Of a stretch of DNA of 64,000 nucleotides, positions 1,371 to 61,866 are shown piece after piece. Made by a program: the position numbers and the translations under genes. The notes beneath the pieces were generated by a model. It saw only the letters and a program-made list of their open reading frames with translations, was not told the DNA's origin and made no database searches. This DNA comes from a virus. The DNA is taken from positions 32,001 through 96,000 of IMG/VR virus record IMGVR_UViG_3300035183_000096; one strand, given 5' to 3'. The stretch's first letter is position 1; every line of letters starts with the position of its first letter.

Positions 1371-1380
1371 CGAGATGTTC

Positions 1381-1409: not shown

Positions 1410-1415
1410 TCAACA

Positions 1416-24450: not shown

Positions 24451-25195
24451 TGTATGTATTATCGTTACTTGTTACAATAAAGAGAAAACGATAGTAAATG
24501 CTATTAAGAGCGCTGCCAATCAAAGTTATGACCCAAAGGCTATAATAGTTGTAGATGATGGTTCTACAGATAAAAGCTGGCAAGCTATCAAGAGTTGTTT
24601 TAAGAGTAAGACAAGGTATGAGCCAGAAATAATAGTTGGCACAGGTGAACATAACGTAACATTGTACGCCATAAAAAACAAACATAGATGCGGTCCAGGT
24701 ATTGCAAAGAACAAAGCTATGGCTATGGCGTTTAACGTAAGTGACTTGTTCCTATTCTTAGAGGGCGATGATGAGTTGGCGACATTAAAGACACAAATAA
24801 TGGTAAATAAGTTTCTTGAAGACCCAAGGGCTATTGGCCTTATATATAGTGACCAGATGATACGAAATCATATTGAAGACTATGAAGTAACTGGATATAT
24901 GCCACCATTCAATAGAAGTTTGTTAGAGAATGTAAATTATGTTGAACCTAACTATATGGTAAGCAAAAAAGCTGTGTTTACTGCAGGTAAGTTTGATGAA
25001 CAAATACCATTTCCAGACCACGATTTTGTTCTTAGAATAACAGAGAAGTTTGTTGGTATCCATATACCGGAGGTTCTATCTACTCATAACATCTTACCAG
25101 ATGGTTACACGCTTAATTATCAGGGCGACCTAAACAAAAGCACAGAAATCACAATCAAGAAAGCTATACAGAGAGTGAGGATTGCGGAAGAATGA
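24437..25195 (+). CDS. GT2 (GT-A) glycosyltransferase
   Basis: IIVTCYN.E..I..AI.S, VVDDGSTD, FLEGDD, FDE. Confidence 0.9.
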   Translation: MNKPNVCIIVTCYNKEKTIVNAIKSAANQSYDPKAIIVVDDGSTDKSWQAIKSCFKSKTRYEPEIIVGTGEHNVTLYAIKNKHRCGPGIAKNKAMAMAFNVSDLFLFLEGDDELATLKTQIMVNKFLEDPRAIGLIYSDQMIRNHIEDYEVTGYMPPFNRSLLENVNYVEPNYMVSKKAVFTAGKFDEQIPFPDHDFVLRITEKFVGIHIPEVLSTHNILPDGYTLNYQGDLNKSTEITIKKAIQRVRIAEE

Positions 25196-28705: not shown

Positions 28706-29108
28706 ACAAATAGGTAATGGTTTGCAATTTGAGGCAGAAGCAGATAGTCAACTTGGTCTATTTAAGGCTCTTGCCGACATCGACAAAACCTATCAGGAAG
28801 TATTCGGCGAAAAACAATGTGGTTGCTGCCAGTCTAATAACATCTTTTTCAATGAAAGAAATGTAGAGAAAGAAGACGCAAAGACAAAGAAAGTTAAGAA
28901 GTACCAATACTTTGAAATGAAGTGTCGTGACTGTTGGGCTACTTTGTCGTTTGGCCAACACCAAGAAGGTGACACACTGTTCCCTAAGCGTAAACTTGAG
29001 AATGGTGAGTTTGATAAAGAACATAGGGGCTGGAAGAGATGGAAGAAGACAGAACAACCTGCTAAGAGTTCAGCAAAGAAAAATGAAGATGATGATGCCC
29101 CATTCTAA
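28692..29108 (+). CDS. Zinc-binding protein with SSB-like acidic C-terminal tail
   Basis: CGCC and CRDC pairs; ends KKNEDDDAPF; GAGGTGG RBS before ATG 28692. Confidence 0.7.
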   Translation: MKAIRQIGNGLQFEAEADSQLGLFKALADIDKTYQEVFGEKQCGCCQSNNIFFNERNVEKEDAKTKKVKKYQYFEMKCRDCWATLSFGQHQEGDTLFPKRKLENGEFDKEHRGWKRWKKTEQPAKSSAKKNEDDDAPF

Positions 29109-34994: not shown

Positions 34995-37900
34995 TTACCA
35001 TCCTCTTACAAATAGGTTCCCTTGCTTGATGATTTTATCAGAAGTCTTCGGCATTACCAATTTTATATCATTGTCATAAGTTGATGAGGCTGCATTCAAA
35101 AATAGGTCAAAATCTCCAGATATACCAGGAATATAACCGTTGATATATAAAGGCGTTTGCTGTCCAATAGCTGTTTCAATAAACAAATTCATACTGTCAT
35201 CAAATGTTATAAACCCATCTCTTTCTCCTGAGCCTATTATCCATAGGTCAATACTATCTGTAGCACTTAATACGCTATTATGCAAGTAAAGAGGTAGTGT
35301 GCTGTCAAACTCACTCCATCCACCCTCTATACACAAGTTCATTGATTCATCGAATTCTTCAAAGGCTACAGTTTCTAGGTATAATGGCATATCTTCTAGC
35401 CATTCACCTTCTATTTCACTTGTCTTTAAGTATAAGTCTAAACCAGAAGTAAACCCAGTGCTATTTGTACTAAACATCCATAGGTCAGCCCTAGAGTCTA
35501 GTGGAGTAATAGGATTACCCTGTAAATATAGATTTAGACTTTCATTGCTTACATCAAAACCGTGTATAAATAGGTCTATGGGCGATTGCTCTATTGTGCT
35601 TATAAATAATGGTATAGAACTACTAAAATCATCAATTGAGTTGATGTATAGGTTCAAATCCCCACTACCATCATCTTTGCCGCGAATGAATAATTCAGTG
35701 TAAACAGGGTGGATATATAAATCCACACCATCTACCCAGTTGTCAAATTCGCCGCCACTCATGTATAGGTCAAATTGACTATTCAGTGGTTTCGCGGAAG
35801 CCTCTACCCATAGGTTCAAGTTCTCGGATAAGTCAGTAGGTGTCCATACCTTTAAGTAAAGTTCATTAAGTTGACCACACCCAATGTTTTCCGCAACACC
35901 AATCATATTTAGGTTTATGCTAAGACTACTATCTCCACCACCACCAATATATAGATTCAAGTCCTCATTAACTGGTGAATGTATATATAAGTCTAGGCTT
36001 GGGTCAAAATCTAAAGCGTCATCCTTTCCTTTTGCAAACAGAGGAACACCAGTAGAGTTAAAGAAGAATGGGTCTGTAAGTTCTCCTTGAATGAATAAAT
36101 TAAGCCCTTCATCTGCCCCGTACACGCCATCAATAAATAATGATGTAAACCTACCAGCACCAGCATTCACTGTTGTTTGAACTGGAATCGGTCCCTCTAT
36201 TGGCATATAAATATCACGATAACTGGTATAGGAGTTCCATACCTCATCTGCTTCAAAAGCTCTATCACGATAAACACGAACATCCTTAACACATCCATGG
36301 AAGAATGTATCTTTAAGAAAGTTATCAATACCATCCTCAGTACCAGTCTTAAATAATCTTGGCTTATCCCCAGTATTATAAGCAATAGGGAATGTACATG
36401 GACCTTGGGCTATCAATAGTCCATCCAAATACAACTTCATTGTGCCATTACCACTGCCCGGACTTATACCACCAAATATCATAAAGTCTGGTGGACTAGA
36501 TAGAAAGACGCCAGTTTCTTCACCACTACCAGAGCCACTTGGGTCTGGAGTTGTATATTCGTTTGGCATTGCCACTGCGGTTATGTGGTGCCAGTCCGTG
36601 TCATCATACCTAATAGAATTTTCCACTCCACCAGAAATAACATCACCGACTGTATATCCATTTATGGCAAATCTTATGGTGGAAACAGGAGTGCCGGTTC
36701 CAATGCCTGAGTATCCTCCTACTAATCTTAGGTCATAACCACGATTAAATTGCCAAGAAATAATTGGGCCTTCGAGTGTAGTGAATGTCGCTTTTGGAGA
36801 TTTACGACGCACCCAAGCGCTTAATGTTATAGCACCAGTTGCGTCTATAGTACCAGAAGTGTAGTTGTTTATCTCACCATATATGTTTAAGTCTGTTCCA
36901 CCAGGACCAAGTTCTTCCTGGAAGTTAATTATCTTACCAAAGTCTTGGTCGAAATCCCATTGATACTCGTCATTTGACCCAACACCAGATTCGCCGCCTA
37001 AATTACCATCCCAATAGAAGTATTTAGCATCAGCCCTTAATATATCAGTGCTATGCTTACTAAACGTATTGTTATACAAACTTGGGCCATGCCCCTCATT
37101 CATAGGCCAAAATGCGACTTGCCCGTCTTCCCAGACTGAGTTATAATTAGCAAGAGAATGTAAGTGTGGGTAATCGTAAGGATAAGTCTTTTCAATAAAA
37201 AATAGGGCGGCTTGTGTACCAGAATCTTGTACTCCCCATATACATAGAGGTATTGAACTGTCAGGTAAAGGTTCTCCCTCCAAGTGTAGTGGGATGTTTC
37301 TTGAGTCTGTATCGTAACCTTTGATAAATAGATTTCCAACCATACCCTCGTGGTATAACACACTGCTTTCTATAGAGATAGGTTGCATATACTCAGGTGT
37401 TTGGAAAAATCTATTCTTTTGACGACGATATAAGTCCACATGCTCACTAATTTCTAATGGCTTGTCTATAAATAACACGTCGCTTAAGCTACCACTGTAC
37501 CCAGTAGTATTATAAAAGGTAACACCAAACTCATCTGCATAACTAACAGCATCTCCACTGCCAAACTTTAGATACTGACTAGGACCATAAGAATAACCAA
37601 GACCAGGATAAGCCAATCTATTATAACCATTACCCTCAATAACATCATTTTGCTGAACAACCCTACCATTTATTGCGGTTGTAAATTGCCAATAAGAAAA
37701 ACCAAAAATAGGTGATGTCAATGGCTTCATTGAACATGAGAAGTAATTCCAGTCATTTGGACGCAATGCTCCTGTAAAAGAAACATCTGATGCTGTAAAT
37801 CCAGCGGTTCTATTTGTAAATTCAGTTGGATATAATTGCGCGAATGTGCTTGGTACTTCAGAACCTTCTCTAAAGAATATGGATATAGGACCATTTTGTA

Positions 37901-38459
37901 CAACAACATAGGCCGCTGTAGTAGGACTCGACGGTTTCTTTGTGGTCTTATACCAAAACGCAATTGTGTGGCCTTCACTGCTTATACTACCATCTAATCC
38001 CAAGTGGTGCATATTATAAGGAATACCACTAAAAAATACGCTATCCCCAGTATTTTGAAAGTTTAGACACAATCCTCTTTGCTCATCATATTGTACGCTG
38101 GCCCCTGATAAAGTGCCATCAATACCACTATTATGAGTAACATAGGCTCCATAATAAACCACTGGAGCATAACCAAGATTGCGTAATGTGGGCGAGTTAA
38201 AGTCTAGTGTAGGCCAATATCCAGCTATATAATCCTTTGGGAAATAATCTTCATTATTAGTCAATATAGGACTATTCCATGCGTTTAATGGATAGGTCTT
38301 CTCTATCCTTATAAACTTGGACCTATATGTAACTTCACTTTCGCCTACAGCTATCATACTCAAAGGAATATCACCATTTGATGGTGTTGGTGGGTCGCCA
38401 AACACCATCAGTGGTGGTTCATCCCCTAAGAATGTACTACTTAGAATTATGTCAGACAT
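34995..38459 (-). CDS. LamG/concanavalin-like domain tail fibre or adhesin with LxLxIxG repeats
   Basis: Two LamG-like domains (TIAFWYK/ITLSAWV, WNY/WHHITAV, LYLDG, DVRVYRDRA) and many L.L[YF]I.G repeats. Confidence 0.75.
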   Translation of the reverse strand: MSDIILSSTFLGDEPPLMVFGDPPTPSNGDIPLSMIAVGESEVTYRSKFIRIEKTYPLNAWNSPILTNNEDYFPKDYIAGYWPTLDFNSPTLRNLGYAPVVYYGAYVTHNSGIDGTLSGASVQYDEQRGLCLNFQNTGDSVFFSGIPYNMHHLGLDGSISSEGHTIAFWYKTTKKPSSPTTAAYVVVQNGPISIFFREGSEVPSTFAQLYPTEFTNRTAGFTASDVSFTGALRPNDWNYFSCSMKPLTSPIFGFSYWQFTTAINGRVVQQNDVIEGNGYNRLAYPGLGYSYGPSQYLKFGSGDAVSYADEFGVTFYNTTGYSGSLSDVLFIDKPLEISEHVDLYRRQKNRFFQTPEYMQPISIESSVLYHEGMVGNLFIKGYDTDSRNIPLHLEGEPLPDSSIPLCIWGVQDSGTQAALFFIEKTYPYDYPHLHSLANYNSVWEDGQVAFWPMNEGHGPSLYNNTFSKHSTDILRADAKYFYWDGNLGGESGVGSNDEYQWDFDQDFGKIINFQEELGPGGTDLNIYGEINNYTSGTIDATGAITLSAWVRRKSPKATFTTLEGPIISWQFNRGYDLRLVGGYSGIGTGTPVSTIRFAINGYTVGDVISGGVENSIRYDDTDWHHITAVAMPNEYTTPDPSGSGSGEETGVFLSSPPDFMIFGGISPGSGNGTMKLYLDGLLIAQGPCTFPIAYNTGDKPRLFKTGTEDGIDNFLKDTFFHGCVKDVRVYRDRAFEADEVWNSYTSYRDIYMPIEGPIPVQTTVNAGAGRFTSLFIDGVYGADEGLNLFIQGELTDPFFFNSTGVPLFAKGKDDALDFDPSLDLYIHSPVNEDLNLYIGGGGDSSLSINLNMIGVAENIGCGQLNELYLKVWTPTDLSENLNLWVEASAKPLNSQFDLYMSGGEFDNWVDGVDLYIHPVYTELFIRGKDDGSGDLNLYINSIDDFSSSIPLFISTIEQSPIDLFIHGFDVSNESLNLYLQGNPITPLDSRADLWMFSTNSTGFTSGLDLYLKTSEIEGEWLEDMPLYLETVAFEEFDESMNLCIEGGWSEFDSTLPLYLHNSVLSATDSIDLWIIGSGERDGFITFDDSMNLFIETAIGQQTPLYINGYIPGISGDFDLFLNAASSTYDNDIKLVMPKTSDKIIKQGNLFVRGW

Positions 38460-38461
38460 TC

Positions 38462-41400
38462 CTATTTTCCTGTATTGTTAGGATAACTTATTCTAATTCC
38501 TTGAGCATCAAAGTCGTTCTTTAGACTACTTATAGCTTGATATACCGCCTCTTCAGCAACTTCCTTCATAACCGGTTGTAATCTTGTTAAGACTTCGGCG
38601 CCATTGAATAATACCTCCATCCTATGAGTAAATACACCCTCAATTTGTCTTGGGAAATTATTCATTGCTTGAGCCAATGTTTGCGTTCCTCCAATAAAAG
38701 AGTCAAATACAGACTTAAGTGTAGCTGTAGCTGTATTAAAACTATCTACTGCTGAACTTAATCCACCGCCTCCGTTTCCAGTTGGTATTGGTACGCTTCC
38801 ACCTTGAGCAAAGTAATTAACCTTATGTAAGTTAGCTGTACCTATTCTTGAAACAGCATTCTTGTTAAGAACATATTCACCGGCAGATAACAATGCTGGT
38901 ACTTTATCCCCTGCGCCATGTCCGGTAACAACACCACCACTAGCATATCTAGCAAACCTTTTTCTGTCATAATTGCGTACTACATCCAATGGACCCAGCT
39001 CTTGTTCTATAAGATGAGCATCAGGATTACCTTTTTCGTCAAATGTAGTTATGTAGGCTGTGGTTGGCTCATCAGGGCCAGATGAGTAATACGACGTTCT
39101 AAATCTCACGTTTTTGGAATCCGTCAACTTGGATAGGTTATTTCTAACTGTAGCAAGCTGTTGTTCCAATTTAGCGCCTGGTTTAGTTATGTTTTCGTTA
39201 TTACTCAAAGCAACCAATCTTCTTTCGTAATCCCTTAAATCTGCAATCTTCTTTTGAATATCCTCTTCAGGTAGAATACCAAGGAAGTCTCTAGCATCAT
39301 CATCAGTCAACATATATCTATGTTTATAAGGGTTTTGTAATTCTTGAAGTGTTAGGTATAGTTCTTTTTTATTAGCCAACTCTTTAAGTCTTTCGGATAC
39401 CATCTCACGGTCAGTTTTATTTAACTTAAAAAATTCATCTCTTAACTTATTTTCTTTTGCCTCAATAGCGGCTATCTTATCTTCGACTGTTTCAGGATAA
39501 GACTTTCTATGAATAAACAACACCTGTTGTCCTTTCTTATTTTCATCGCGAACCTCCTGTTGTCCTTTATTCTTTCTTCCCAAGCCAATCTCATCTACGA
39601 TGTCAGAGACAAATAACTCGTTGCCTGCCTCAACAAAGCCATAACTTGGGCTATTATAATTACGCTTACGCAATATAGCAAATCTTTGTTCTAATCTCTT
39701 AATAACCTTAAGTCTATCTTCATACTTCTTTATTTTTAAGAATTTTGAAAATTCACTATCTAGTTTATCACCAATTTGTTCATCAGTAGTTCCTAGGACT
39801 TCTAGCTTTCTATAGTTGCCTATCTTAGCTAATTGGTCCTTAAAGTATAACTCTGTTTCTAATAACCTAATCTCCTTAGCGCGTTCTATTTGTCCGCTTT
39901 TATCTGCTGGAGTATTACTAAACTTAAGAATTCTTTCTATTTTTGCTTGCCTCTCAGCTATATTCTCAAACTCATTACCCTTAGCCTGTCTGGATGACTT
40001 TACGAAAGCGTCAAATCCTGGTAAACCAGTGTTGCCAAGAATATTTTGCTCACCAAGAACAGCTTGCTTAAATCTAATATCTTGTTCGGCTGCTAGTCTA
40101 GCTTGTGGGCGTTTATAAGTAATTCTCTTTTTATTCAGCCTACGATTTAAGTAATCCTCTTCTTCCTTAAGTTTACGCCTTTTCTCCTGTAAATTTATAC
40201 TAATAATCATGCCAATTGATGTGTCAATAAGTCCGCCAGATGATGCATAAATAACATCCTGACCTGAGTTAATTTTGTTTAACAAACCTAAGTGTTTGGA
40301 TGCGGCTCTAGCATTAACAACATACTCACCTGGGGTTAGCATTGCTGGAACAGTATCGCTACCGTGTGGCTTAAATATAATTCCACCTGCGGCCTTCTTC
40401 TCTGGTTCTGGTGGTAACTTAGATATAGCACCGTTAATTACTTCAAGCGTTTTCTTCAAAGCCTGAAACTGTGTGTCCAAATCCTTTAGGCTCGAACCAA
40501 TCTTTCCAGCTTCATCAATAATCCTTGTTATTTTGGATGGGTCAGACTTAATCCTATTAAACAAATCATCCTGTCCAGCGCTTGTGAATCTCTGTTGTAT
40601 TTCTGTTTCTTGAGCCTCTATTTGCCTAGTGAGATTACTGGATTCAGCTTGGAATACTTCAGCAATAGACTCTCTAAATAGCTTTTGTAAATTATTAGGG
40701 TTGTTAAGCGATTCTCTAAACTTATCTCCACCTTGAACAAATCTTCTCTCAAATACCTCCAAAACCTTACCAGCGACTTCAGCCGGAATCCCAGCTTCAG
40801 TAAGTTGTTTCGTTAATAATGGTTTACGTGATTCGCTTATAACGACACGACCATCCTTATCGTTTATTTTACTGTAGATATAAGCAAGAAGTGGGTTCCT
40901 TGTTGCTAATGATAATTGACTTGCTACACCACCACCGCCACCATCATCAAATTTATAGTGCTCAATACCCCTACCTGCTCTATTGTATATGGGACCAAGT
41001 TTAGTAAGAATATTATCAATTTCCTTTTCATCAAATCTACTCTTACTCTCATTAAGCTCCTTTAGTTTAGTAAAAGAGGATTGATTAGCCCTTATCAAAT
41101 TTATCTGCTCATCGGTTGTTATACCAAATTTTTCACTAAGAATCTTCTTAGACGCTATACCACCATTTTCTATTTGAGAAATTGCTGCTTCAGTCTTTAT
41201 CTTTCTTTGCTGTAAATCAGCACGACGCACTTCGGTTTGGCTATTTTCTAATTTAGACAAAAATGATTTAAATTGTTCTTCAATATCTTTTATAAAATTA
41301 GTATTAGCCTGATTCAGATTATTAACCAATTCACGTTGGGCCTGAATTTGTAGCTTATTATTATCCTGAACAATCTGTTGTAGGGCTTCAATCTGAGCCT

Positions 41401-44400
41401 TTTGCTCTGGACTTATATCGGTTGTCTTACCGACATTCGTAGCACCAACTAATTGTTCTTCGACTTCACCAAGAGTTGCTCCACCGAATGCGGCAGAACG
41501 CACATTTCTAAACTGGCCCGTCAATTCAAAGATAGCCTTACGAATTTCCAAAGGTAGATTTTCTATACCTACTTGTCTTGCTGCTAGTAAGCCCTTAGCT
41601 CCCAAGTTTAATCTCTGTAGTTGTTCAGGGTCAGAAGTCAATAGAGTCTTAGCTAAACTACGACGCTCACCTCTTTCTTGCTCAATAGCGTTTAACTTCT
41701 CAGAAGCAATAGCAGCTTTATCAGCATTCTCCGCCAAGTTACGGAGAGCCTGTCTTGCGTTTGCGGCGGCGTTCTGGAATTGAATTAATTCAGCAGCAGC
41801 TTTAGCAGATGCCTCACTACCAACTGGGGCACTATCCCTTCTCTTTAGAGCTTCTTCGGCCTTTTTTTCATTATAAGCTATAACTTTACTTATGGCGACT
41901 GGGTCATTGGCCTCAGCACCCTTTAGACCAGTAAGCCTCTCCTGTCCAATTTGGAATGGCCGAGTAAGTTGATTTATAGTTAGAAAATCAGTAACACTAC
42001 CTTGACGGCCTTCTGCTCTAGCCTGGAATAATGCGTTGGTTTTAGCAAGAGAAAGTTCAAGGTTGTCAATCTTACCTCTTTCGCTGTTGACAAGGTTGCC
42101 TTGCTTAGCTCCCTGAGCAAGACCCGCATTTAGTCTTCCCGCTTGGTCATACAAAGCTCTTCCCATTTCAGCTAAGGCCTTCTTAAACGGGTTGAAATCA
42201 CCAAGAAGTTCTTCGGTTATTTTTTCTGGAGATTCCCTAAGTTTTTCAGCTATATCCTCTGGTTTTGACCCTTCCGCTTTGGATACGATACTATCTGTTA
42301 TTTCTTTAGGTATATTATTAGCATCAAGTTGTTCGCGAAGTTCAATGCCTAGATTTTTTTTACCAAACGCGCTTGATTTAAGAACTGTTGATAGTATTGA
42401 TGGTAGTATTCTTTCGGCTTTATTTAGACCATTAGCGAGTACACCTAATTGATTGTTAGGCACTTGAGCAGTTATGTCTAATATACTTTGATTGAAAGCG
42501 TCCTGATTAGGAGCGCCAAATTGTCTAATACCTTCCTCTGTGTTTCTAAAAGCTATAGGTGTAAAACCACTGTCGAACTTATCAGTCACTAATGTAATCG
42601 AACGTCCAAGGTCTGTAACGCTTTGTGACGCCGTGCTGAAAGCCTGAGCCAATCTATTTATGCTTGACAATACATTATTTACTTCGATAGCAGCATCCTT
42701 TCTTCCTCGTTCAATAGATAATGCCTTTGCTTGCTCCCTAAAAGACTTAACAAAGTCATTCAAAACCTTATCAACTGGCACATTCTTTACTAAGGATATA
42801 GAGCTGAGAATGTCTCTATTGTTTATAGCAAAGTTCTTCTTGAAGTTTTCTACTTCCGCATTAAGTTCTTGTTCATTTAATGTTCTAGTAGTTATCTGTT
42901 TAGCGAAGTTAGCTATTTCCTTATTCATCGCTTCAGCAAGAGCAGGTAATTGCAAACCTAATTGTTGTTTTATGTTAGATAGAGTAGTATCTGCTATTTC
43001 TTGATTCTTGGGTCTAAAGTCGTATTCAGTGGCGCTTAAATCACCAAAAGTATTACCACTTATTAAACCAAGGAATCTACTACCAAAAGCCTTAACTCTA
43101 TTAAATCCCTCATCAACGAATGTTTGTTCAAATTGCTTACTAGTTTTATTAATAGAAGCATCAACTACTTGTCTTGTTATAGAATTAATAGATGCAATAT
43201 TTCCACCCTTACCAGAGTTGAACTCTTCTAACTGTTGTTGAAATTTAGTAAATGTCTTTTCAAGCTCAACTTCAGCTAACTTTTGATTAGTTTCCTTAAC
43301 AGCCTGAGCAAAACCCAATGCGGCACCAGCGGCAGCACCAAAGGCTACACCAATCGGTCCAAACGCAACACCAATACCGGCACCTATACCAGCACCAGAA
43401 AGTGCACCACCAATCCTTTCTTCTCTAACAGCTTGATTTCTTAATGCTTCATTTGGGGCTGTTTCAATAGACAAACCTTTTGTTCTACCAAATTGTTCAA
43501 ACAATACAGACGCGGCGGCTATACCTGTTACACCAGCTACACTGGCTGTTTTACTAAGTTGAGCAAATTTTTGTTTCTTAGCTTCCTTTTCATACTTTTT
43601 AGCATCCGGCAATGTTGTTCTTGCTTCCTTTAATCTTTGTGCTTCTTCTTGGGCTTTATTTCTACTCCTCTCTATAATATCACGTTGTCTTTGAACATCA
43701 GGTTGACTTTCAAAACTCTTTCTGGCCGATTCTGCCTCACGTTCTATTTTCTGAAAACTAGGTAGGCCAAGTGTAGCCTGTCTTTTGTTGAAAGCTCTTA
43801 ATGCCTTCTGTCTATCTACTTCATTGATACCACCCTCTAAAGTGGCTATCTCATCCGGAGTAGCAGAAGCAGCTCTAGCTTTAGCGGCTGTAAGACCTAA
43901 ACCTTCTTGCCTTCTAATGGTTGTTATAAGAGTCCTATCCTTCAATTCAGACTTAGCCGTATCTAAAGCAACACCAGCATTAACCAGTCTAGTGTCAGAA
44001 ACCTCACGGCTCGCTATATCACGCTCTGCTCTTTTACGTGAGGAGGCAGTATCTTTAAGACCCCTAACAGCACTTCTTTCTTGACGTTCAATCTGATATA
44101 CACGTTTACTTGCCTCATTCAGTGCTTTGAATGCGTTAGTGGTTTCCTTTATACTAGAAACCAAATTAACCATGGTTCCAGCAAGTACGGTTATAACAGC
44201 AAAGCCCTCTATACCAGAACTAGCCGGAATAGGAGTGCCGCCAGTCTGAAAGCGTTGAACTACACCACCAGTATGATAACGAGGTAATTCACCAGTCTGA
44301 TTCATCTTGTCTAAGTTTTGCTTACCAAGACGAGCCGCACTTTGCTTAGAAAGAACGTACTCACCAGGAGTAAGTAAGGCCGGAACCTCACCACCACTAG

Positions 44401-46558
44401 CTCTTGATATAGCTCCATATTTTTTATCAATCTCCTTTGGTGGCTTTTGACGAGGCTCGTCAGTCTCTTCTTCTTCGACACCATACCGTCTAATAGCTTT
44501 GGACAAAACTTTAATTCTAGCTTCCTCGTTATCCGTTAATTTGGCGTCACCATTACTACCCAATGTTCCTGGGAAAATTTTATCAATAGACTTAGGAACT
44601 TTAGGAAAATCAAAGTCTTGATTAGAACTAACAATCTTAGTATTTGCTATAGCTTGTAGTGCTGCTTCAAAGATTCTACCTTGACCTTGAGGATTTACAA
44701 CCTTATCAACTAAATCATCATCTATTTTCTCAACATTTCCACCAAAAACATCATTAGCTATTTGACTTACAGCAGTTTTTACACTGGACCTAAACTTAAT
44801 ACCCAACTCATTCTCAGCCTTAACAGATGGTCCAACTGTACGCATAGTAGCCGTTGCTTTTCTTGCTTTACCAATTTTCTCGCGTGCCTCTTCTGTTAGT
44901 TTTCCTCTAGGAGCAACAATAGTGGCAAACTCTGAACTACCCTTCTTATTAGGATTTAAGTATAGTAATGATAATCCTCTACCTCCGTCTTTAGCCCTAA
45001 CAACTCCACCCTGACCATACTTATTTATGCGCTCTAGCGTACCATAACCTATAGCTTGAGCAGACTGCTTGCGAATGACATATTCACCTGGAGTTAGGTA
45101 AGCTGGAACCGTATCTCCGTCACCAGTTCCAGGTACTATACCACCACCAGCCCTATTAATTGGTCTTCCCAACGTATCAGAACGCCCTAAAAAACCTGAA
45201 CCAACACTATTAAAAAACGCTCCTAGAGAAGAGCTTAACTTAACAGCGGCTAAAGCTGTAAGCAAAGGAACAAGTGGTTTAATGGCCTCAATTAAGGTTA
45301 GAGCATTTTTGGTTGCTGTGGCTAAGAAAGTAACTAGATAGTTAAAGCCTTGAGATTGTACAATAGACCTACCTAGAGCTAAGATTTCTTCCTTAACTTT
45401 AGTAAGTTGAACTATGTAAGCCTCTTGCGCTTGTTTAGCATTAACAGTGAGGGAAATACCGCCGGATTGAGCTACGTTAAGAGCTTTCTGAGCAGTTTCA
45501 AACTCTTGAATAAGTGGCACTACCTTTGAGATTTGACGTATGCCACCAATCTCTTCAACAATGGAAGCGAATCTTGTATCTGTTGTTGGTAGATTCTTAA
45601 GAGCTATACTTAATCTACGAATAGCTTCATATGGACCTACGAACTTACCTTCTAGGTTAGCATCACCAAGAGAAACAGCTTCTTCTTTCGTTCTTCTAAG
45701 TTGAATGCCGAGCGCCTCAAGCTCTTTAATTGTTTCTGGGCGTTGAATACGAGCAAAGATTGTGCGAAAAGCCGTAGCGATACTTTCAGCGCTTTCGCGG
45801 GTTGTAGCACGAACGCTTGTAAATAGAGCTATTAACTCATTTAAGTCACCACCAGCTACTTTGAAAGCTCCACCAGTACGCTTAATAGCATCAATCAAGT
45901 CCCTAGACTCAACGGCGAATGCACCAGCAACAGCGTTAATAGAACCTAACTGTTCTTCCAAATCGTTGGCTCCTGTCTTGAATTGTTGCATTATAGCAAC
46001 AACACCTTCGGTGGTTGACTTCAAATCATCGAAGTTAGGAGCTAGAGCGGCCTTAGCTAATGCCTCAAGAGAGGTTTGCACATCTTGTGTTGCTAAACCA
46101 GCTTGTTTGAGGACTACGGCAGCGGCCAATAACTCTTTGGAACTCACACCAAGAGTTTTAGATAATCCAGTGATTTCCTTTTCTAGTTGTGAAATCGTAC
46201 CGTAAGTGTCTCCGCTAACCTGAGCGAGTCTAACTAATTCGCGCTGGAATTTAACAGCCTCACCAATGGCTTCTTTTAGAGTACCAACAAATGTAATAAA
46301 GCCACCAGCAGCAATAGTATAAGCTAAAAATCTCTTAGCTGCTATACCAGTCTGCTCACCAAGTTTATATATGGAATCAGTAACCTTATCAGCCCCATCC
46401 TTAATCGCTCTTAAAGATGTGGTAGCGGCAGCAATGTTAGGAGCATCAACTTTGATATTTGCGTTTAAGCCTTGAAGTTGAGACTTCATTTGAGCCAAAA
46501 CGGTACCAAGGTTTTGCGGACTGCGTACTATTAAATTAACATAAGCATTCATTGCCAC
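38462..46558 (-). CDS. Tape measure protein (~2700 aa) with repeated AxGG/VPAxLxxGEYV modules
   Basis: N-terminal TP901-type TMP core (ESAESIATAFRTIFARI), glycine-zipper TM segments, long helical regions; probable start GTG 46558 after GAGG. Confidence 0.92.
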   Translation of the reverse strand: MAMNAYVNLIVRSPQNLGTVLAQMKSQLQGLNANIKVDAPNIAAATTSLRAIKDGADKVTDSIYKLGEQTGIAAKRFLAYTIAAGGFITFVGTLKEAIGEAVKFQRELVRLAQVSGDTYGTISQLEKEITGLSKTLGVSSKELLAAAVVLKQAGLATQDVQTSLEALAKAALAPNFDDLKSTTEGVVAIMQQFKTGANDLEEQLGSINAVAGAFAVESRDLIDAIKRTGGAFKVAGGDLNELIALFTSVRATTRESAESIATAFRTIFARIQRPETIKELEALGIQLRRTKEEAVSLGDANLEGKFVGPYEAIRRLSIALKNLPTTDTRFASIVEEIGGIRQISKVVPLIQEFETAQKALNVAQSGGISLTVNAKQAQEAYIVQLTKVKEEILALGRSIVQSQGFNYLVTFLATATKNALTLIEAIKPLVPLLTALAAVKLSSSLGAFFNSVGSGFLGRSDTLGRPINRAGGGIVPGTGDGDTVPAYLTPGEYVIRKQSAQAIGYGTLERINKYGQGGVVRAKDGGRGLSLLYLNPNKKGSSEFATIVAPRGKLTEEAREKIGKARKATATMRTVGPSVKAENELGIKFRSSVKTAVSQIANDVFGGNVEKIDDDLVDKVVNPQGQGRIFEAALQAIANTKIVSSNQDFDFPKVPKSIDKIFPGTLGSNGDAKLTDNEEARIKVLSKAIRRYGVEEEETDEPRQKPPKEIDKKYGAISRASGGEVPALLTPGEYVLSKQSAARLGKQNLDKMNQTGELPRYHTGGVVQRFQTGGTPIPASSGIEGFAVITVLAGTMVNLVSSIKETTNAFKALNEASKRVYQIERQERSAVRGLKDTASSRKRAERDIASREVSDTRLVNAGVALDTAKSELKDRTLITTIRRQEGLGLTAAKARAASATPDEIATLEGGINEVDRQKALRAFNKRQATLGLPSFQKIEREAESARKSFESQPDVQRQRDIIERSRNKAQEEAQRLKEARTTLPDAKKYEKEAKKQKFAQLSKTASVAGVTGIAAASVLFEQFGRTKGLSIETAPNEALRNQAVREERIGGALSGAGIGAGIGVAFGPIGVAFGAAAGAALGFAQAVKETNQKLAEVELEKTFTKFQQQLEEFNSGKGGNIASINSITRQVVDASINKTSKQFEQTFVDEGFNRVKAFGSRFLGLISGNTFGDLSATEYDFRPKNQEIADTTLSNIKQQLGLQLPALAEAMNKEIANFAKQITTRTLNEQELNAEVENFKKNFAINNRDILSSISLVKNVPVDKVLNDFVKSFREQAKALSIERGRKDAAIEVNNVLSSINRLAQAFSTASQSVTDLGRSITLVTDKFDSGFTPIAFRNTEEGIRQFGAPNQDAFNQSILDITAQVPNNQLGVLANGLNKAERILPSILSTVLKSSAFGKKNLGIELREQLDANNIPKEITDSIVSKAEGSKPEDIAEKLRESPEKITEELLGDFNPFKKALAEMGRALYDQAGRLNAGLAQGAKQGNLVNSERGKIDNLELSLAKTNALFQARAEGRQGSVTDFLTINQLTRPFQIGQERLTGLKGAEANDPVAISKVIAYNEKKAEEALKRRDSAPVGSEASAKAAAELIQFQNAAANARQALRNLAENADKAAIASEKLNAIEQERGERRSLAKTLLTSDPEQLQRLNLGAKGLLAARQVGIENLPLEIRKAIFELTGQFRNVRSAAFGGATLGEVEEQLVGATNVGKTTDISPEQKAQIEALQQIVQDNNKLQIQAQRELVNNLNQANTNFIKDIEEQFKSFLSKLENSQTEVRRADLQQRKIKTEAAISQIENGGIASKKILSEKFGITTDEQINLIRANQSSFTKLKELNESKSRFDEKEIDNILTKLGPIYNRAGRGIEHYKFDDGGGGGVASQLSLATRNPLLAYIYSKINDKDGRVVISESRKPLLTKQLTEAGIPAEVAGKVLEVFERRFVQGGDKFRESLNNPNNLQKLFRESIAEVFQAESSNLTRQIEAQETEIQQRFTSAGQDDLFNRIKSDPSKITRIIDEAGKIGSSLKDLDTQFQALKKTLEVINGAISKLPPEPEKKAAGGIIFKPHGSDTVPAMLTPGEYVVNARAASKHLGLLNKINSGQDVIYASSGGLIDTSIGMIISINLQEKRRKLKEEEDYLNRRLNKKRITYKRPQARLAAEQDIRFKQAVLGEQNILGNTGLPGFDAFVKSSRQAKGNEFENIAERQAKIERILKFSNTPADKSGQIERAKEIRLLETELYFKDQLAKIGNYRKLEVLGTTDEQIGDKLDSEFSKFLKIKKYEDRLKVIKRLEQRFAILRKRNYNSPSYGFVEAGNELFVSDIVDEIGLGRKNKGQQEVRDENKKGQQVLFIHRKSYPETVEDKIAAIEAKENKLRDEFFKLNKTDREMVSERLKELANKKELYLTLQELQNPYKHRYMLTDDDARDFLGILPEEDIQKKIADLRDYERRLVALSNNENITKPGAKLEQQLATVRNNLSKLTDSKNVRFRTSYYSSGPDEPTTAYITTFDEKGNPDAHLIEQELGPLDVVRNYDRKRFARYASGGVVTGHGAGDKVPALLSAGEYVLNKNAVSRIGTANLHKVNYFAQGGSVPIPTGNGGGGLSSAVDSFNTATATLKSVFDSFIGGTQTLAQAMNNFPRQIEGVFTHRMEVLFNGAEVLTRLQPVMKEVAEEAVYQAISSLKNDFDAQGIRISYPNNTGK

Positions 46559-46571
46559 ATTAAACCTCACT

Positions 46572-46624
46572 AAAAGCAAAAAGCCGCAGCGTACCAAGCG
46601 TGAGTTCTTGGCGTACTACGACTT
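46572..46624 (-). terminator. Imperfect hairpin + U-tract immediately upstream of the TMP RBS
   Basis: Minus strand AAGTCGTAGTACGCCAAG-loop-CTTGGTACGCTGCGGCTT TTTGCTTTT. Confidence 0.55.
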
Positions 46625-53955: not shown

Positions 53956-54966
53956 TTAGAAGCTACCAAGGATAACTCTACGGTTGTCTAATACACCGAA
54001 GCCAATTTCCATCCAGCCACAGTAACCTTGACGACGCTGACGGAACAAGCTATCATCCTCGAAGATTTCCAACTCTTGACGAATTGGCATTACAAAGCTG
54101 TCATTAACACTTAGGTCAAAACCTACCACAAGTTCTCTATCGGAAGTTTGTAGAGCAGCACCAAGTTCATTTAGGTAGTACAACTGATATTCTTGGTCTT
54201 CACCAAGCTCATCGAGTTCGTGTAGGTTGACTCCGAATAGTCTTGTTAAGCCACCGTCGCCTAGTTGATAGATTTCACGACGAGTTACTTCGTCTATTAT
54301 ATCTACGCCCCAATTACGAATATCTTCCTGAGCTTCTGGGGACATATATAGGTCAGTTAGCTTACCGCGGCTGACACTTGTTGAGTTGCCACCGGAGTTA
54401 CGACGCATAACTAGCTTCATAAGAGAAACAAGTCTCTTTGTGAATTGACCTTGGGTTGCGTCAGAATCATATACTAAGATGTTACGGTCAACACCAGCCA
54501 TCAATAGGGTGTGCCAACCATCATCGTTTAACTTCTTGACAAACATGCTTTCAAGAACTTGCATAAACTTTGCAACAATATTCCAACGCGCATTCTTAGC
54601 ATAACGCAATGACCAGTCGATGCTTGCACCAATTTCGTAAGTAGGCATGGTTACGAAGTCGCCTTCTACGAACTTTTGAGGCATCATACCCTGAGATGGA
54701 ACAGCATAAGCAACATACTCACGCTCTGTACCAGGAGCTAAGAAATCCAATGGATATTCTACATATACGCCTGGTTCAAACTTCTCTTGCTGGAAGATGT
54801 TACCAATAATGTCGCCACTCAGAACACCCTTACGAAGAGGGATTTCAAGCGACTTAGCGATTTCGCGTTGTGCAGCAAAAGCTATATAACGGTCATCACT
54901 ACCAGCGTCTCTAAGTGCACACATAGCCTCATCTAGGTCTAAATTATCTATTATTCTATTTTCCAT
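53956..54966 (-). CDS. Major capsid protein (HK97 fold)
   Basis: 336 aa after protease/scaffold and decoration genes; strong terminator downstream; C-terminal G...W.EIGFGVLD..RV; start ATG 54966. Confidence 0.85.
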   Translation of the reverse strand: MENRIIDNLDLDEAMCALRDAGSDDRYIAFAAQREIAKSLEIPLRKGVLSGDIIGNIFQQEKFEPGVYVEYPLDFLAPGTEREYVAYAVPSQGMMPQKFVEGDFVTMPTYEIGASIDWSLRYAKNARWNIVAKFMQVLESMFVKKLNDDGWHTLLMAGVDRNILVYDSDATQGQFTKRLVSLMKLVMRRNSGGNSTSVSRGKLTDLYMSPEAQEDIRNWGVDIIDEVTRREIYQLGDGGLTRLFGVNLHELDELGEDQEYQLYYLNELGAALQTSDRELVVGFDLSVNDSFVMPIRQELEIFEDDSLFRQRRQGYCGWMEIGFGVLDNRRVILGSF

Positions 54967-54982
54967 TTTTAGTTTCTCTCCG

Positions 54983-55453
54983 TTACTTAGGAAGTTCAAC
55001 GTATAGCTTTGCAAAACCGTCAGAGTTCTTACGACTACCGAAGACGCCGACTTGTGGAGTTGCAGTTGCGTTTACGAATGTTGGGGTAACATTACCGTTA
55101 TTGGTTAGATAAGCCTTGTCACCAGCCTTTGGATTACCAGTGATTTTGTTTGTAACAACCCAACCTTTCTGAACGATAGTGACCTTACCACCTGTTTGAA
55201 CTTCTTCTTTATAGAAATTCAAGTGTGTTTGGGTCAAATCCTTATTTACAACGTCTTGTATAATGACACCTAATGGAATAGTGCCACTGGCCGTAGATGC
55301 TACATAGCAAAAGGCTTCTGCGTCATCTAAAGAAACACCAGCGCCACCACTAGGGTCTTGGGCAAATACTACTACTTGACCCTTCTCGGCTAAGCCACTT
55401 GAAAAATAATCAATAGAATCTTGAATAATTAGTCTATCGCCTAATAGAGCCAT
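54983..55453 (-). CDS. Capsid decoration/cement protein (putative)
   Basis: 156 aa between scaffold and MCP; G.VTI...G.V.T, AGD.AYL...G.V beta-tulip-like pattern. Confidence 0.65.
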   Translation of the reverse strand: MALLGDRLIIQDSIDYFSSGLAEKGQVVVFAQDPSGGAGVSLDDAEAFCYVASTASGTIPLGVIIQDVVNKDLTQTHLNFYKEEVQTGGKVTIVQKGWVVTNKITGNPKAGDKAYLTNNGNVTPTFVNATATPQVGVFGSRKNSDGFAKLYVELPK

Positions 55454-57086: not shown

Positions 57087-59228
57087 TTACTCGTCGGTTA
57101 GTCCGATAATACAAGCTACAGCTTGAATGGTTCTTATATCCTCTATACTTGGTTCAGCGTTTACTTTAGTCATAAAATCCAATAGAGTATTAGCATATAT
57201 ACGACGAACATTGTCTGGAACTTGCACTGGATTACTAATAATCCCAGCAACAGTTTCCTCTTCTATTTTTTTAAGAGGCTTAAGATTGGCTAAAACTCTA
57301 AATCTTAACTCTTCAAGAACTTGTGCTTCTTCGTCGCTTAATTGACGTAGATTCTTTTTGCCACATGATTCAAGATACACCGGAGTTAAAATATCTGTTA
57401 TAATTCTTTGAGCTTCTTTAGCCCATGCTACCATAGAAGCAAATTCTGCCTTACTACGAGGCTTGACAATTTTTTGCTTACGCTTATTACTATCCTTTGA
57501 GTTTTTCGGCCTACCTTGTTGTGGTTGTCCTTTTTGTTTAGGACTTCCTGGTAAACCCAAAGGAGCTTTAGGTATGGTTTGTCGCATTAAGATTTTCTTT
57601 GTATCCAAACTACTTTTAATACCAACATCTTCTGGGCGTATTAAACCTCGCTGTAAGGCAATCCTTTTCATTTCTTCAAGATTACCCGTCCTATGGTATG
57701 GAGAGGTTTTTTCTGGTAATGCACCTAACTTACGCTGACGATATTCTCTCTTCATACGAATGTTTTCTAGCTCAGGAATCAGATTAAACCTTTCCATTAG
57801 AGCTTCACCAGAAATAAGGTCGCGGTCAGCTAACTGAACTAATAAAGCCTTTTCAGCGTCTTCACTTGTTAATGAAATCTTATCAAAAACTAATTTGGCT
57901 GGTTCGTTCCAACCTAGAGCCTTCTGTACTAAACGTAGTTGGTGATTCCAGAACATAATTAAGATATTTCTAACATAGTTAAGTCTTTCAATGAGTGTCT
58001 TAAGACTTACAGCGTTGTTAGTAAAACCACCGGAGCTGTCACCAGTAAGTGTGCTAGGAATACCTAAACCAGCATAGATATTACGAAGACTTTGTTCGTA
58101 TTTAGCTGAACCAATAAACTTATCTATATCTGTTGATATTTCTTCAACTTTTAGGTCTGGCCCCCATATGATGTCAATGGTGCCACCAGAACCTAATGCC
58201 ATTAACATATTATTAAGTTTGACGAAAGCCGCTGGACCAGGAACAAATTGGTGTTCCAGGCTACCCAACTTCCACACTCTAATACGGGAAGCAGCAGCAT
58301 CTAACGCCGTTCTATCTGCTAATCTAGCTTTTTGGTAGTCAATTAAATCATCCAATATACAATAATGGATTGGGTCCGCCCATGTTTGCCAATCATCTTT
58401 TTTATAATGATAAACAAACGTTTTATCGTCAGGAAGTGGTATATATTTAGCCCCACTTTTTACTAGACTAAGCAATTCGGCAGGTAAGTTTGCTACAAGT
58501 TCTACTACCTTTGGGTCATTAGTAGAACGCATAGCTCTCATTACATTTTCAGGAACCCTTAAAACATATCTGGAAACACCAACGAAAGCTGCAACTTCCT
58601 CACCAACCACTTCAACATCAATTGGATTAAGAAATGTGTACTTCCAAGGGATTTCGTTTTTCTCTGTTGTAGATAAATCTTCTGGATTGGTAATATCAGG
58701 AGCGGCGGATGTTTTTGTCAACTTTTCTACTCTACGAGCGTTTAATTTAGCTGTAGTCATCTTAACCACAGTATTACCAGCCCTCATAAGTATGTTGGAA
58801 AATCTTTCTGAGCGTTCTTTACCATTTACTTTTTCAAACCAAGCCTTAGCTACCTTATCCTTAGCTTTGTTGGTATGCACAACATTTATGCCCTGAGTAA
58901 CAAAGTCAGACATTAAATCAATTACATTGTGAACGATACCAATTTTACGAGCAGCCTCCATACACTCCTTTATATTTTCTTTTTGCCTACGAGGAGTTTG
59001 CTCATTCTTACGGAAGTAGTAGTAGTCGTTATTAGAGTATCCATCCCTTACAGATACATTGGGAGCTACATTTTGGAACGTATTCCATGCAGAAGAGCGG
59101 TGTATTGGGTCGAAATTTTGTGTAGCATTAGCTGACATAGTTAGGGCTTCGGCCTTACTCTTTGCATTATCCCATGTTATATACATAGGACCAGTTTGAT
59201 GTCTTGTCTTCATATACTTAGCAGGCAT
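57087..59228 (-). CDS. Portal protein
   Basis: Follows TerL; IVHNVIDLM.DF, Y.FLNP, stem-clip-stem arrangement ending IYAGLGIP..L. Confidence 0.85.
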   Translation of the reverse strand: MPAKYMKTRHQTGPMYITWDNAKSKAEALTMSANATQNFDPIHRSSAWNTFQNVAPNVSVRDGYSNNDYYYFRKNEQTPRRQKENIKECMEAARKIGIVHNVIDLMSDFVTQGINVVHTNKAKDKVAKAWFEKVNGKERSERFSNILMRAGNTVVKMTTAKLNARRVEKLTKTSAAPDITNPEDLSTTEKNEIPWKYTFLNPIDVEVVGEEVAAFVGVSRYVLRVPENVMRAMRSTNDPKVVELVANLPAELLSLVKSGAKYIPLPDDKTFVYHYKKDDWQTWADPIHYCILDDLIDYQKARLADRTALDAAASRIRVWKLGSLEHQFVPGPAAFVKLNNMLMALGSGGTIDIIWGPDLKVEEISTDIDKFIGSAKYEQSLRNIYAGLGIPSTLTGDSSGGFTNNAVSLKTLIERLNYVRNILIMFWNHQLRLVQKALGWNEPAKLVFDKISLTSEDAEKALLVQLADRDLISGEALMERFNLIPELENIRMKREYRQRKLGALPEKTSPYHRTGNLEEMKRIALQRGLIRPEDVGIKSSLDTKKILMRQTIPKAPLGLPGSPKQKGQPQQGRPKNSKDSNKRKQKIVKPRSKAEFASMVAWAKEAQRIITDILTPVYLESCGKKNLRQLSDEEAQVLEELRFRVLANLKPLKKIEEETVAGIISNPVQVPDNVRRIYANTLLDFMTKVNAEPSIEDIRTIQAVACIIGLTDE

Positions 59229-59279: not shown

Positions 59280-61397
59280 TTAACTCCTGACGATAACAGA
59301 GAACTTGCAATTTCCATCAACTTGGCTAGAATACCAGTGAGCGCCAAGATACATAGACTGACCTTGACTTTTGCTTACCTCTTCTTTCTTAACTTGTCCT
59401 ACCACGCCTCCGATATTGTGATATTCTGGTTTTTCTGGCGCGCGTTGTATAGTACGAGCCGCCATATTAGCGATAAGAAGTGCGGAGTATCTATCCTTAC
59501 GAAGCCTACCCTTCTTTTGCATACCCGGAGTCTTAATCTCAGGCGTGTCCCAACGCTCGCGACCATTTGAGGTTTGGGTGTGCTGAATACTAGCTAATTC
59601 TTCCTTAAGTTCCTCAATCTCAATCATACAATCTTCAAGAGTATCCTCTCTTGGTACACCATAGTCTTTTTCATACTGGTTATCTTCTTCGCCAGCTAAT
59701 TGTATTTCAACGGCATCAAATCTAGGTAGTAATAGAACCTTGTCTTCAAAGTCTTTTTTCATACCATGATTTGCTTCACTTACCCATTTACCATCTGAGA
59801 AATTAACTAACTCAACGAGATGTAAGCCAGCATAGCTGTCACTATCTTTCGGCTCATCTGGGTCACGAACAGGCCATATTGGCAATTCTCCGGGGTACAT
59901 CTTGTCGGTGTCGTAAAGAGCTTCAGCTACCTCACGCCCGCCGCCTTCAGCATCCATAACAATACGTTCACAAGGGAATGTCTTCATAAGCTCGCGAATT
60001 TTACGGGCACAATAAGCATAAAATTGATGTTCTTTAATAATACCCTTTTGAAACTTTTCCTTAAATCTTTTCCTATCTGTTGTCCAAACATAAACAACAC
60101 GACGATGTTCCGGCCAAAGCTCAAGTAAGGTTATAGCAAAATTATCGCGTTCGGAGGCTGGGTCAATTCCATAAACATATCTACGTTTTGGATGACCTTT
60201 AATAGTAGCAGAAAATTGCACTGGAATACCACTTATATAGATTGGGTGGCGGGTAACGCATGTTTCAACTAATGTACGCTTAAAAAAACCATCACTGTCG
60301 CCCACAAAGACTGCTCCGTACTCCATTTCATAAGCTGCTTTGTGTAAGGTAGCTTTGTTAGAAGCAATCTGGGTGGCGTCAAAGTAACCTTCTTGTAGTA
60401 AGTCAACGGGTATGCGAATTATACAATAATCTTTCCAGTTAAGGGCAGCCATATTTTCGGTATCACCGCCCATCATTTCAGCCAACTTGGCTTGATTACC
60501 TTTGCTTGAAATAATAGCTTTATACTTCTTCCAATACTTAGCAAAATTACGAAAGCTATATGATGCTGTGCCGGAGATGATAACCTGATTACGTTTGGAC
60601 TCAAACAATTCTTTTGCTCTTACTTGATTATCTTCGTTAATAAAACCTAACTCTTGCATAGCCTTATAGCTTGCTTTACGCTCCATATTCTCAATTGGGT
60701 TGTCTGATACAACAGTAAAACCTTTAATAACGGTTTCAAAAATTTCGGTATCAATAGCATCAAACTCATCAGCAACAATAGTGTTGGCGCGCAAACCTCT
60801 AATCTTCTCACCATTACCAATAGGTAGAGCAGTAATAACACTGTCAGCCAGAATCATTTCATGACGGTCTATATTACGATGTGGGCCATTTCTTAAGCCA
60901 CGGGCACCAGTATCACCAAGTAAATCTCTTAATATATCTGCCTTATACCATATAGTTTCACCATACTCAGACAATAATTTACTTTGACGAAAACCGGCGC
61001 CCGTTAGAATAATCTTTGAGCCTTGTTTAATAAGGCCTTTATACATAACATAGAACGCTAATGTAAAGGTCTTAGACATACCACGACTACCCACCAATAA
61101 TGGAAATGGGTGGTCCCACAACAACCTAATTAAAGCCACCTGCATTGGCGACAATTTTACATTAAAAATATGTTTAGCTGTAAAATGAACGTAGTTTACA
61201 TCAGTAATAAGTTTAACTAGATACTTATGTGGTCTCTCTATATCCTCACGAGTAATGTGAGCTAGAGGATTATCAATTTCCCGGCCTATTAAATCAGGTA
61301 AGTTTAACCACGCTCTTTTTACATACTGTTTCGCTAACTCTGGGTCACTTTTTATTTCTTCTAGGCTTAGTCGCGGGTCTTTCTTTTTCGCGCTCAT
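59280..61397 (-). CDS. terL: Terminase large subunit
   Basis: L.P.Q adenine-binding motif, Walker A GSRGMSKT, IRGLRA, Walker B IVADE, SGTA, RNase H YGIDPA, KDRYSA. Confidence 0.92.
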   Translation of the reverse strand: MSAKKKDPRLSLEEIKSDPELAKQYVKRAWLNLPDLIGREIDNPLAHITREDIERPHKYLVKLITDVNYVHFTAKHIFNVKLSPMQVALIRLLWDHPFPLLVGSRGMSKTFTLAFYVMYKGLIKQGSKIILTGAGFRQSKLLSEYGETIWYKADILRDLLGDTGARGLRNGPHRNIDRHEMILADSVITALPIGNGEKIRGLRANTIVADEFDAIDTEIFETVIKGFTVVSDNPIENMERKASYKAMQELGFINEDNQVRAKELFESKRNQVIISGTASYSFRNFAKYWKKYKAIISSKGNQAKLAEMMGGDTENMAALNWKDYCIIRIPVDLLQEGYFDATQIASNKATLHKAAYEMEYGAVFVGDSDGFFKRTLVETCVTRHPIYISGIPVQFSATIKGHPKRRYVYGIDPASERDNFAITLLELWPEHRRVVYVWTTDRKRFKEKFQKGIIKEHQFYAYCARKIRELMKTFPCERIVMDAEGGGREVAEALYDTDKMYPGELPIWPVRDPDEPKDSDSYAGLHLVELVNFSDGKWVSEANHGMKKDFEDKVLLLPRFDAVEIQLAGEEDNQYEKDYGVPREDTLEDCMIEIEELKEELASIQHTQTSNGRERWDTPEIKTPGMQKKGRLRKDRYSALLIANMAARTIQRAPEKPEYHNIGGVVGQVKKEEVSKSQGQSMYLGAHWYSSQVDGNCKFSVIVRS

Positions 61398-61866
61398 TAA
61401 CTAATTCCACCATTCTTTTCATTAGACAGGAGGCTATACGATGACCGTTACCACTTCCGGCCAATATAAACTTGGTTTTGTACTTAAGTTGAAACTCCAT
61501 CAACTTTGCAAGAATAAGACGTGGGGATATTTTTGCCAAACTCTTCCAATACATTTTTGGTATGCCAGAATTTTCGGGAAAGTTAAGGATGTCATCCATA
61601 TTAAACTCTAAGACAACATATGGAAACTCAAACTCCTGTAATCTCTCTAATTCTTTTATAAATCTTGCCTCAAGTATATTGCGGGAAAACTCTGATGTAT
61701 TTGCCTTACGCTCAATAACAAATATGTTTTCCAAACCCTTTAACGTATAATCACCAGTTGGTAAGGCTTCAATTACTGTACCATTACACCAATCGCAAGG
61801 ACTAAACATCCATCCATGCCCCTCCTTTTCCCTTGTGTCTCTAACTACTGTATATAGTTTATTCAT
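61345..61866 (-). CDS. ERCC4/XPF-like nuclease
   Basis: RDTREK, LPTGDY, IERK, RF..ELERL. Confidence 0.85.
   Translation of the reverse strand: MNKLYTVVRDTREKEGHGWMFSPCDWCNGTVIEALPTGDYTLKGLENIFVIERKANTSEFSRNILEARFIKELERLQEFEFPYVVLEFNMDDILNFPENSGIPKMYWKSLAKISPRLILAKLMEFQLKYKTKFILAGSGNGHRIASCLMKRMVELVNEREKERPATKPRRNKK

Follow-up and report, generated by a model that had tools for sequence, protein, structure and literature searches.

The tape measure protein of an uncultured tailed phage, encoded on a 64,000 nucleotide stretch of viral DNA (positions 32,001 to 96,000 of IMG/VR virus record IMGVR_UViG_3300035183_000096; termed here the 'window'), contains four copies of a module that also occurs in gpH, the tape measure protein of phage lambda. 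Between the first and second copies (that is, in 'slot 1') it carries a predicted globular domain in which several conserved residues follow the E..D..(D/E)xK order of the PD-(D/E)XK nucleases. Tape measure proteins are rulers and DNA conduits, a small number of which contain cell-wall hydrolases; for this 'slot-1 domain', a nuclease-like function is a plausible reading.

The gene for this protein occupies the following frame:

38462..46597, minus strand: tape measure protein gene, a single open frame that begins with TTG and counts 2,711 codons

The probable start is an ATG (M16) at 46552, which gives a protein of 2,696 amino acids (aa), and an identical 2,696-aa protein (P0002) is on record; residue numbers are counted throughout from the TTG at 46597. 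The product is the tape measure protein of an uncultured tailed phage: its N-terminal core (aa 140-351) matches PF10145 (TP901/SPbeta type) with 98.8 bits against a cut-off of 33.2, and several PHROG tape-measure families match the same frame. Hydrophobic segments are located at aa 89-108, 421-463, 792-817, 1014-1036 and 1062-1100. A Megablast search of the gene against phage records returned no match.

The four modules, each of approximately 65 aa and each harboring the motif VPAxLxxGEYV, are arranged as follows, with independent E-values (i-E) from a hidden Markov model (HMM) of the module:

44975..45172, minus strand: module 1, aa 476-541, RAGGG..GDTVPAYLTPGEYV..YGQGG; VPAxLxxGEYV at aa 497 (45077-45109); i-E 4e-26
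44222..44422, minus strand: module 2, aa 726-792, RASGGEVPALLTPGEYV..YHTGG..FQTGG; VPAxLxxGEYV at aa 738 (44354-44386); i-E 3e-22
40202..40417, minus strand: module 3, aa 2061-2132; VPAxLxxGEYV at aa 2083 (40319-40351); i-E 5e-26
38777..38971, minus strand: module 4, aa 2543-2607; VPAxLxxGEYV at aa 2566 (38870-38902); i-E 5e-23

Module 1 is preceded by the hydrophobic segment at aa 421-463, module 2 is followed directly by that at aa 792-817, and module 4 lies approximately 105 aa from the C-terminus of the protein. An initial annotation, made from the letters of the window, had described these four copies and a series of [YF]xxGG-like motifs behind them. All of its module coordinates were correct, and the motifs (YGQGG, AKDGG, YHTGG, FQTGG, YASSGG and YFAQGG) are all present, although they proved to be part of the module itself: a trailing [YF]AxGG forms its conserved C-terminal end, with both glycines invariant in 29 aligned copies (alignment A4). 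Pairwise BLAST comparisons among the four copies gave E-values of 1e-6 to 1e-13 and 35-48% identity, limited to approximately 60 aa; together with the HMM scores (i-E 3e-22 to 4e-26), these values show that the repeats are not a product of chance. Likeness ends at the module edges, with no similarity found by BLAST among the four sets of flanks within the tape measure, and the idea of a duplicated 'module plus tail' unit was rejected on this ground.

The initial annotation had also proposed that an HMM of the module be built. The first such model, compiled from 36 copies in the window's tape measure and 14 related proteins, matched lambda gpH (translated from NC_001416) at residues 730-792 with an i-E of 2.8e-10. 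A second profile, constructed from copies in the window and in IMG/VR alone, was compared with PDB sequences and matched both the lambda tape measure chain (8iyk_H, residues 732-786, E 2.6e-6) and that of mycobacteriophage Douge (8zdo_S, E 1.9e-10), the latter in two copies at residues 963-1028 and 1411-1460; an hhalign comparison of the same profile with gpH returned a probability of 94.2%. Judged by these profiles, the module is homologous to residues 732-786 of gpH, and is an old, widespread tape-measure element that in lambda lies just downstream of the region that is cut. A tblastn search with the span marked by the initial annotation (44237..45153) gave as its sole match a stretch resembling the module, at 47% identity over 51 aa (E 1e-4), in a hypothetical protein of Synechococcus phage S-BM3 (OQ319121.1, 169 kb, at 28797-28946).

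In lambda, according to the available part of PMC12617516, gpH is matured to gpH* plus gpHC, with gpHC beginning at approximately residue 690; the exact position of the cut, which falls in the glycine-rich region before the module, and the protease responsible are described there as not known. The same text reports that residues 818-849 alone were resolved, bound to gpI, that the stretch from approximately 690 to 817 (module included) was not seen, and that gpH has no known enzymatic activity.

The second element of interest, the slot-1 domain, and the residues within it that are most strongly conserved are listed below; 'A3' denotes an alignment of 35 sequences with 13-25% identity to the window (mean column identity 23%), and 'A1' a 15-row alignment of slot-1 relatives.

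44453..45007, minus strand: slot-1 domain, aa 531-715, predicted alpha/beta
44666..44668, minus strand: E644, in GRIFEAAL (44657-44680), predicted helix; glutamate in 35/35 of A3, and in A1 glutamate in 13/15 and aspartate in 2/15
44609..44611, minus strand: D663, in QDFDFP (44603-44620); aspartate in 35/35 of A3, invariant in A1
44540..44548, minus strand: D684-A-K686, in GDAKLT (44534-44551), predicted strand; the (D/E)xK triplet
44498..44500, minus strand: K700, in the helix after the DxK strand; lysine in 33/35 of A3, invariant in A1

The three peptides stand exactly where the initial annotation had put them, and the order of acidic residues and lysine that it had proposed is kept across the 35 relatives. 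E644 and D663 are the sole invariant columns of A3. Position 684 alternates between aspartate (29 of 35 sequences) and glutamate (6 of 35), so that DAK in the window corresponds to NEFK, AEAK or AEGK elsewhere, while the lysine at 686 is kept in 33 sequences and replaced once each by arginine and threonine; both positions are invariant in A1. The spacing runs from the helix glutamate over 18-26 residues to the aspartate, and over a further 19-30 residues to a (D/E)xK on a strand. This order and spacing is the pattern of the PD-(D/E)XK nucleases. In one sequence such an arrangement might be due to chance, but it is retained across relatives.

An AlphaFold2 model of aa 531-734 (204 aa, calculated from the 15-row alignment) is confident, with a mean predicted local distance difference test score (pLDDT) of 84.8 and a predicted template modeling score (pTM) of 0.76, and it mixes strands and helices. 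From the N-terminus these are four strands, a helix of 27 residues and two more helices, then a bridge at FDF, a short helix, the DAK strand, another helix and a last strand. The model bears out the earlier description of the segment as globular and unlike helical tape measure repeats. A second model restricted to the core, which was meant to sharpen the likeness to restriction enzymes, lost its strands and was set aside; the predicted sheet apparently requires the N-terminal strands. In both models DSSP assigns a beta-bridge at the residue after D663, and in the core-only model bridging is otherwise limited to the residue that immediately precedes D684; if that pairing is antiparallel, D663 and D684 would face each other.

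A search of aa 536-729 against 1.84 billion representative proteins recovered 16 proteins with the domain, all of them large (813-3,533 aa, with 15 of at least 1,101 aa). The match falls mostly at approximately aa 570-870, in three proteins at approximately 1,075-1,280 and in one at 46-214. A stand-alone version of 112-378 aa was not found in the protein search, which used a word index of limited sensitivity, nor did the search among longer proteins give a match (again by word index, and as such weak evidence). To judge from these sequence searches, the domain is a new family, undescribed so far and seen only inside tape measure proteins. Three members of the representative library (P0010, P0012 and P0017) apparently contain two 'domain plus module' units in successive slots; P0012, for example, matches at 757-974 and again at 1125-1415.

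The distribution of the domain was assessed in IMG/VR, which was sampled with a full-length alignment (A2) and with search patterns placed in the N-terminal core, independent of the slot-1 domain. Relatives are encoded by 528 IMG/VR stretches, from which 80 loci were kept; the complete tape measure frames among them range from 1,515 to 5,620 aa. Those that are complete or reach a second module amount to 61 distinct, assessable proteins. An HMM made from 15 representative-library sequences, with no IMG/VR loci, and run with HMMER filters off at i-E <= 1e-3, found the domain in 37 of the 61, leaving 24 without it. The corresponding figure with an HMM of A3 is 41/61, a count that is largely circular since most of the matches had been used to build A3. 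The domain's place is after module 1 in 40 of these 41 and after the third module in the remaining one (L050), and it often ends within approximately 15 aa of the next module. With the A3 HMM it was not found in 12 proteins of at least 3,876 aa, nor in 8 others. The notion that the domain is a rare cargo, drawn from a count of three loci, was discarded as an artefact of default HMM filters.

What else occupies slot 1 differs widely, as the initial annotation had anticipated in proposing a comparison of inter-module contents: the slot varies from no residues to 1,350 aa, and its other contents fall into eight BLAST clusters with unrelated sequences. In four relatives (L031, L046, L074 and L081, of 3,876-4,245 aa) modules 1 and 2 stand in direct tandem, at approximately aa 475-570. 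Several of the giant tape measures carry further back-to-back module pairs downstream.

These patterns bear on what the domain does. The conserved slot-1 residues may form a metal-binding, phosphodiesterase-type (PD-(D/E)XK-like) site of a nuclease-like domain carried within the tape measure, the likeliest of the readings weighed here, although we give it slightly less than an even chance. If so, the domain would ride in the tail lumen within the tape measure and would leave the virion together with it at infection; by analogy with lambda, T5 and HK97-type phages, it would be ejected into the host. The catalytic nature of the site, any substrate and any cleavage at the modules are features that we infer. 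The description of a PD-(D/E)XK-like cargo in the initial annotation stands as regards the conserved signature, but the searches gave it no significant match among known nuclease families or folds. Foldseek searches with the slot-1 model returned nothing below E 0.56 in PDB or E 0.05 in BFVD, an ESM Atlas search with the domain gave no usable match, and comparisons with Pfam, NCBIfam, PHROGs and PDB sequences, using the single sequence as well as profiles, assigned it to no family. No nuclease family appeared in Pfam at E <= 10 for the window's domain or for its 15 or 35 relatives, and none in NCBIfam; LPD38, matched by one of 15 slot-1 members at E 0.053, was treated as noise. Neither in sequence nor in fold is there a significant likeness to the PD-(D/E)XK nucleases Bse634I, NaeI, PspGI and SgrAI or to Hjc/Mrr-type enzymes; in contrast to those enzymes, the aspartate and the DxK stand 20-30 residues apart and are separated by a short helix, the models show no evident canonical beta-sheet core, and the domain forms part of a virion protein.

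The phage has two ordinary stand-alone nucleases of its own within the window:

10330-11325, plus strand: PDDEXK_1 (Cas4/RecB-like) gene
61345-61920, minus strand: ERCC4-type nuclease gene; its open reading frame (ORF) and the beginning of the terminase ORF overlap

The first of these served as a positive control and was found at E 1.7e-22. An hhalign comparison of A3 with both gave a probability of 0.1%, a weak test given that the templates were single sequences, and a search of the phage genome for Mrr_cat returned nothing.

The main alternative, serious if somewhat doubtful, is that the slot-1 domain is no enzyme at all and serves a structural or binding role: as a plug, as a knob for docking or oligomerisation, or by holding the leading DNA end or a metal ion in the tail lumen. 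Salt bridges or ligand binding would then account for the conserved E, D, D/E and K. Such a role would suit a domain that is found only inside tape measure proteins and never alone, that favours a single location (behind module 1 in 40 of the 41 proteins, with its end often within some 15 aa of the next module), and that shows no detectable relation to enzyme families and no fold match. In other siphophages, moreover, N-terminal parts of the tape measure adjoin the DNA end, according to the available part of PMC13033339. On the other hand, an invariant glutamate and aspartate, a D/E alternation and a near-invariant lysine, all held at 13-25% identity, look more like a catalytic or metal site than like a packing surface; and 24 of the 61 relatives do without the domain, which is therefore not needed for tail assembly as such.

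It is also conceivable, though very unlikely in our estimation, that the domain is an enzyme of another kind, with the cell envelope as its most plausible target. The enzymes already known to be embedded in tape measure proteins are cell-wall hydrolases, and the available part of PMC12617516 cites peptidoglycan hydrolases in several of them. Among cultured phages, the N-terminal core has its nearest relatives in the SPbeta-group tape measures (25-27% identity), for which the annotation is lytic transglycosylase, and the slot-1 domain itself sits between the hydrophobic segments at aa 421-463 and 792-817. However, it has no Pfam match to a lysozyme, transglycosylase or peptidase, and while solved structures include many lysozyme-like and peptidase folds, none surfaced in the fold searches.

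The role of the modules is a separate question. In its broadest form, the proposal would make the tape measure a delivery polyprotein whose modules are points of cutting or unlatching, and whose slot-1 domain is a nuclease of new fold, released at the start of infection against host or competitor DNA or against a defence, with relatives loading other cargo or none; taken as a whole, this scheme is unlikely. For the modules themselves, an account that we hold to be evenly balanced between true and false is that they are mechanical, repeated joints (for docking to the tube or hub, or for channel formation) that were duplicated as the tape measure grew and are not cleavage signals, so that the protein stays in one piece save, at most, for a lambda-like trimming near one module. 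The Pfam scan of the tape measure found PF10145 alone and no processing peptidase domain; likewise, among 12 giant relatives Pfam reported PF10145 alone, apart from two sub-threshold hits, and no processing peptidase. Joints would also fit the abrupt end of likeness at the module edges, the presence of lambda's hydrophobic glycine-rich stretch directly upstream at module 1 only, and the position of the lambda cut, which lies upstream of the module and is given as unmapped in the available part of PMC12617516. The tandem arrangement of modules 1 and 2 in four relatives, with nothing between them, would be odd for cargo boundaries, and the Douge tape measure, with two copies, is described as a trimer of 1,699-residue chains in a paper whose available part mentions neither cleavage nor modules. 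Against joints stand the slot after module 1, which ranges from empty to 1,350 aa with unrelated contents, as expected of points of cargo insertion, and the processing of the lambda and T5 tape measures (PMC12617516, available part).

The surroundings of the gene agree with its assignment. The virus record is complete, at 126,592 bp with direct terminal repeats, and the tape measure gene belongs to a head-and-tail block on the minus strand, in which the following genes lie upstream of it on the same strand:

59280-61397, minus strand: terminase large subunit
57087-59228, minus strand: portal
53956-55014, minus strand: major head protein

Downstream follow ORFs of 1,154, 510 and 1,059 aa, one of them with a Laminin_G_3 domain; the order, with the tape measure 3' of the head genes and 5' of large genes of distal-tail or fibre size, fits a tail block. 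The 1,154-aa ORF (34995-38459, minus strand) directly adjoins the tape measure gene and contains the Laminin_G_3 (concanavalin-like) domain; its product is probably a distal tail or receptor-binding protein.

Elsewhere in the window, DNA polymerase III alpha is encoded on the plus strand in two ORFs (12023-17715), with PHP and NTPase domains in the first (12023-13981) and finger and HhH domains, together with an intein splicing domain at aa 102-261, in the second (15544-17715). Between the two halves are genes for a uracil-DNA glycosylase-family protein (13911-14531) and for an RNase T-type exonuclease (14813-15547). A cluster of four or five genes for glycosyltransferases, which also includes a PhoH gene, extends over 18610-25195 (plus strand), and a gene for GDP-mannose 4,6-dehydratase (61859-62923, minus strand) adjoins the terminase block; the sugar genes hint at modification of DNA, virion or host surface. 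At 96-1904 (plus strand) a free-standing HNH endonuclease gene comes after the C-terminal portion of a ribonucleotide reductase, which has a TSCPD domain.

Cell-wall hydrolases embedded in tape measures, and the cleavage of the lambda and T5 tape measures, are already known. Literature searches, the available parts of PMC12617516, PMC13033339 and PMC7824862, and PMC5512222 yielded no account of a tape measure with a nuclease-like domain in it, nor one of a gpH-type module as a repeated joint. A nuclease-like enzyme in the ruler, if true, would extend the activities that are brought into a cell before any gene expression, and would take its place beside the RNA polymerases and polyvalent proteins that other phages inject. 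Independently of that reading, the repeated module offers a handle on where and why lambda gpH is cut, as the same 60 residues edge a slot that in relatives is empty or holds up to 1,350 aa. The slot-1 family combines a confident model and an occurrence in dozens of uncultured phages with the lack of any fold match, and is therefore a good target for structure determination.

Several known systems resemble parts of this arrangement. The tape measures of the SPbeta YomI group, T5 pb2 and those of mycobacteriophages share with it a PF10145-type core and an extra, catalytic-looking domain inside the ruler; they carry cell-wall hydrolases, whereas the slot-1 domain matches none of these and has the E..D..(D/E)xK signature. 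The polyvalent proteins of phages and conjugative elements are likewise giant injected polypeptides that string together effector domains (PMC5512222), but processing peptidases are stressed in their description, and the window's tape measure has no such domain by Pfam; tape measures are mentioned zero times in that account (Iyer et al. 2017). Douge gp16 (8ZDO), from a cultured phage, likewise has more than one module in a tape measure: it contains two in 1,699 aa, of which residues 1,658-1,699 alone were resolved, to go by the available part of the source. With lambda gpH, finally, the likeness extends over the whole plan of the protein, comprising an N-terminal hydrophobic segment, a helical ruler, a hydrophobic glycine-rich stretch, the module of approximately 60 aa and a short C-terminal tail. 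The first 540 or so residues of the window's protein reproduce the layout of gpH up to its module, and module 4 lies near the C-terminus, as does the single module of gpH; however, gpH has that one module in 853 aa, whereas here four are distributed over 2,696 aa, with a folded domain between modules 1 and 2.
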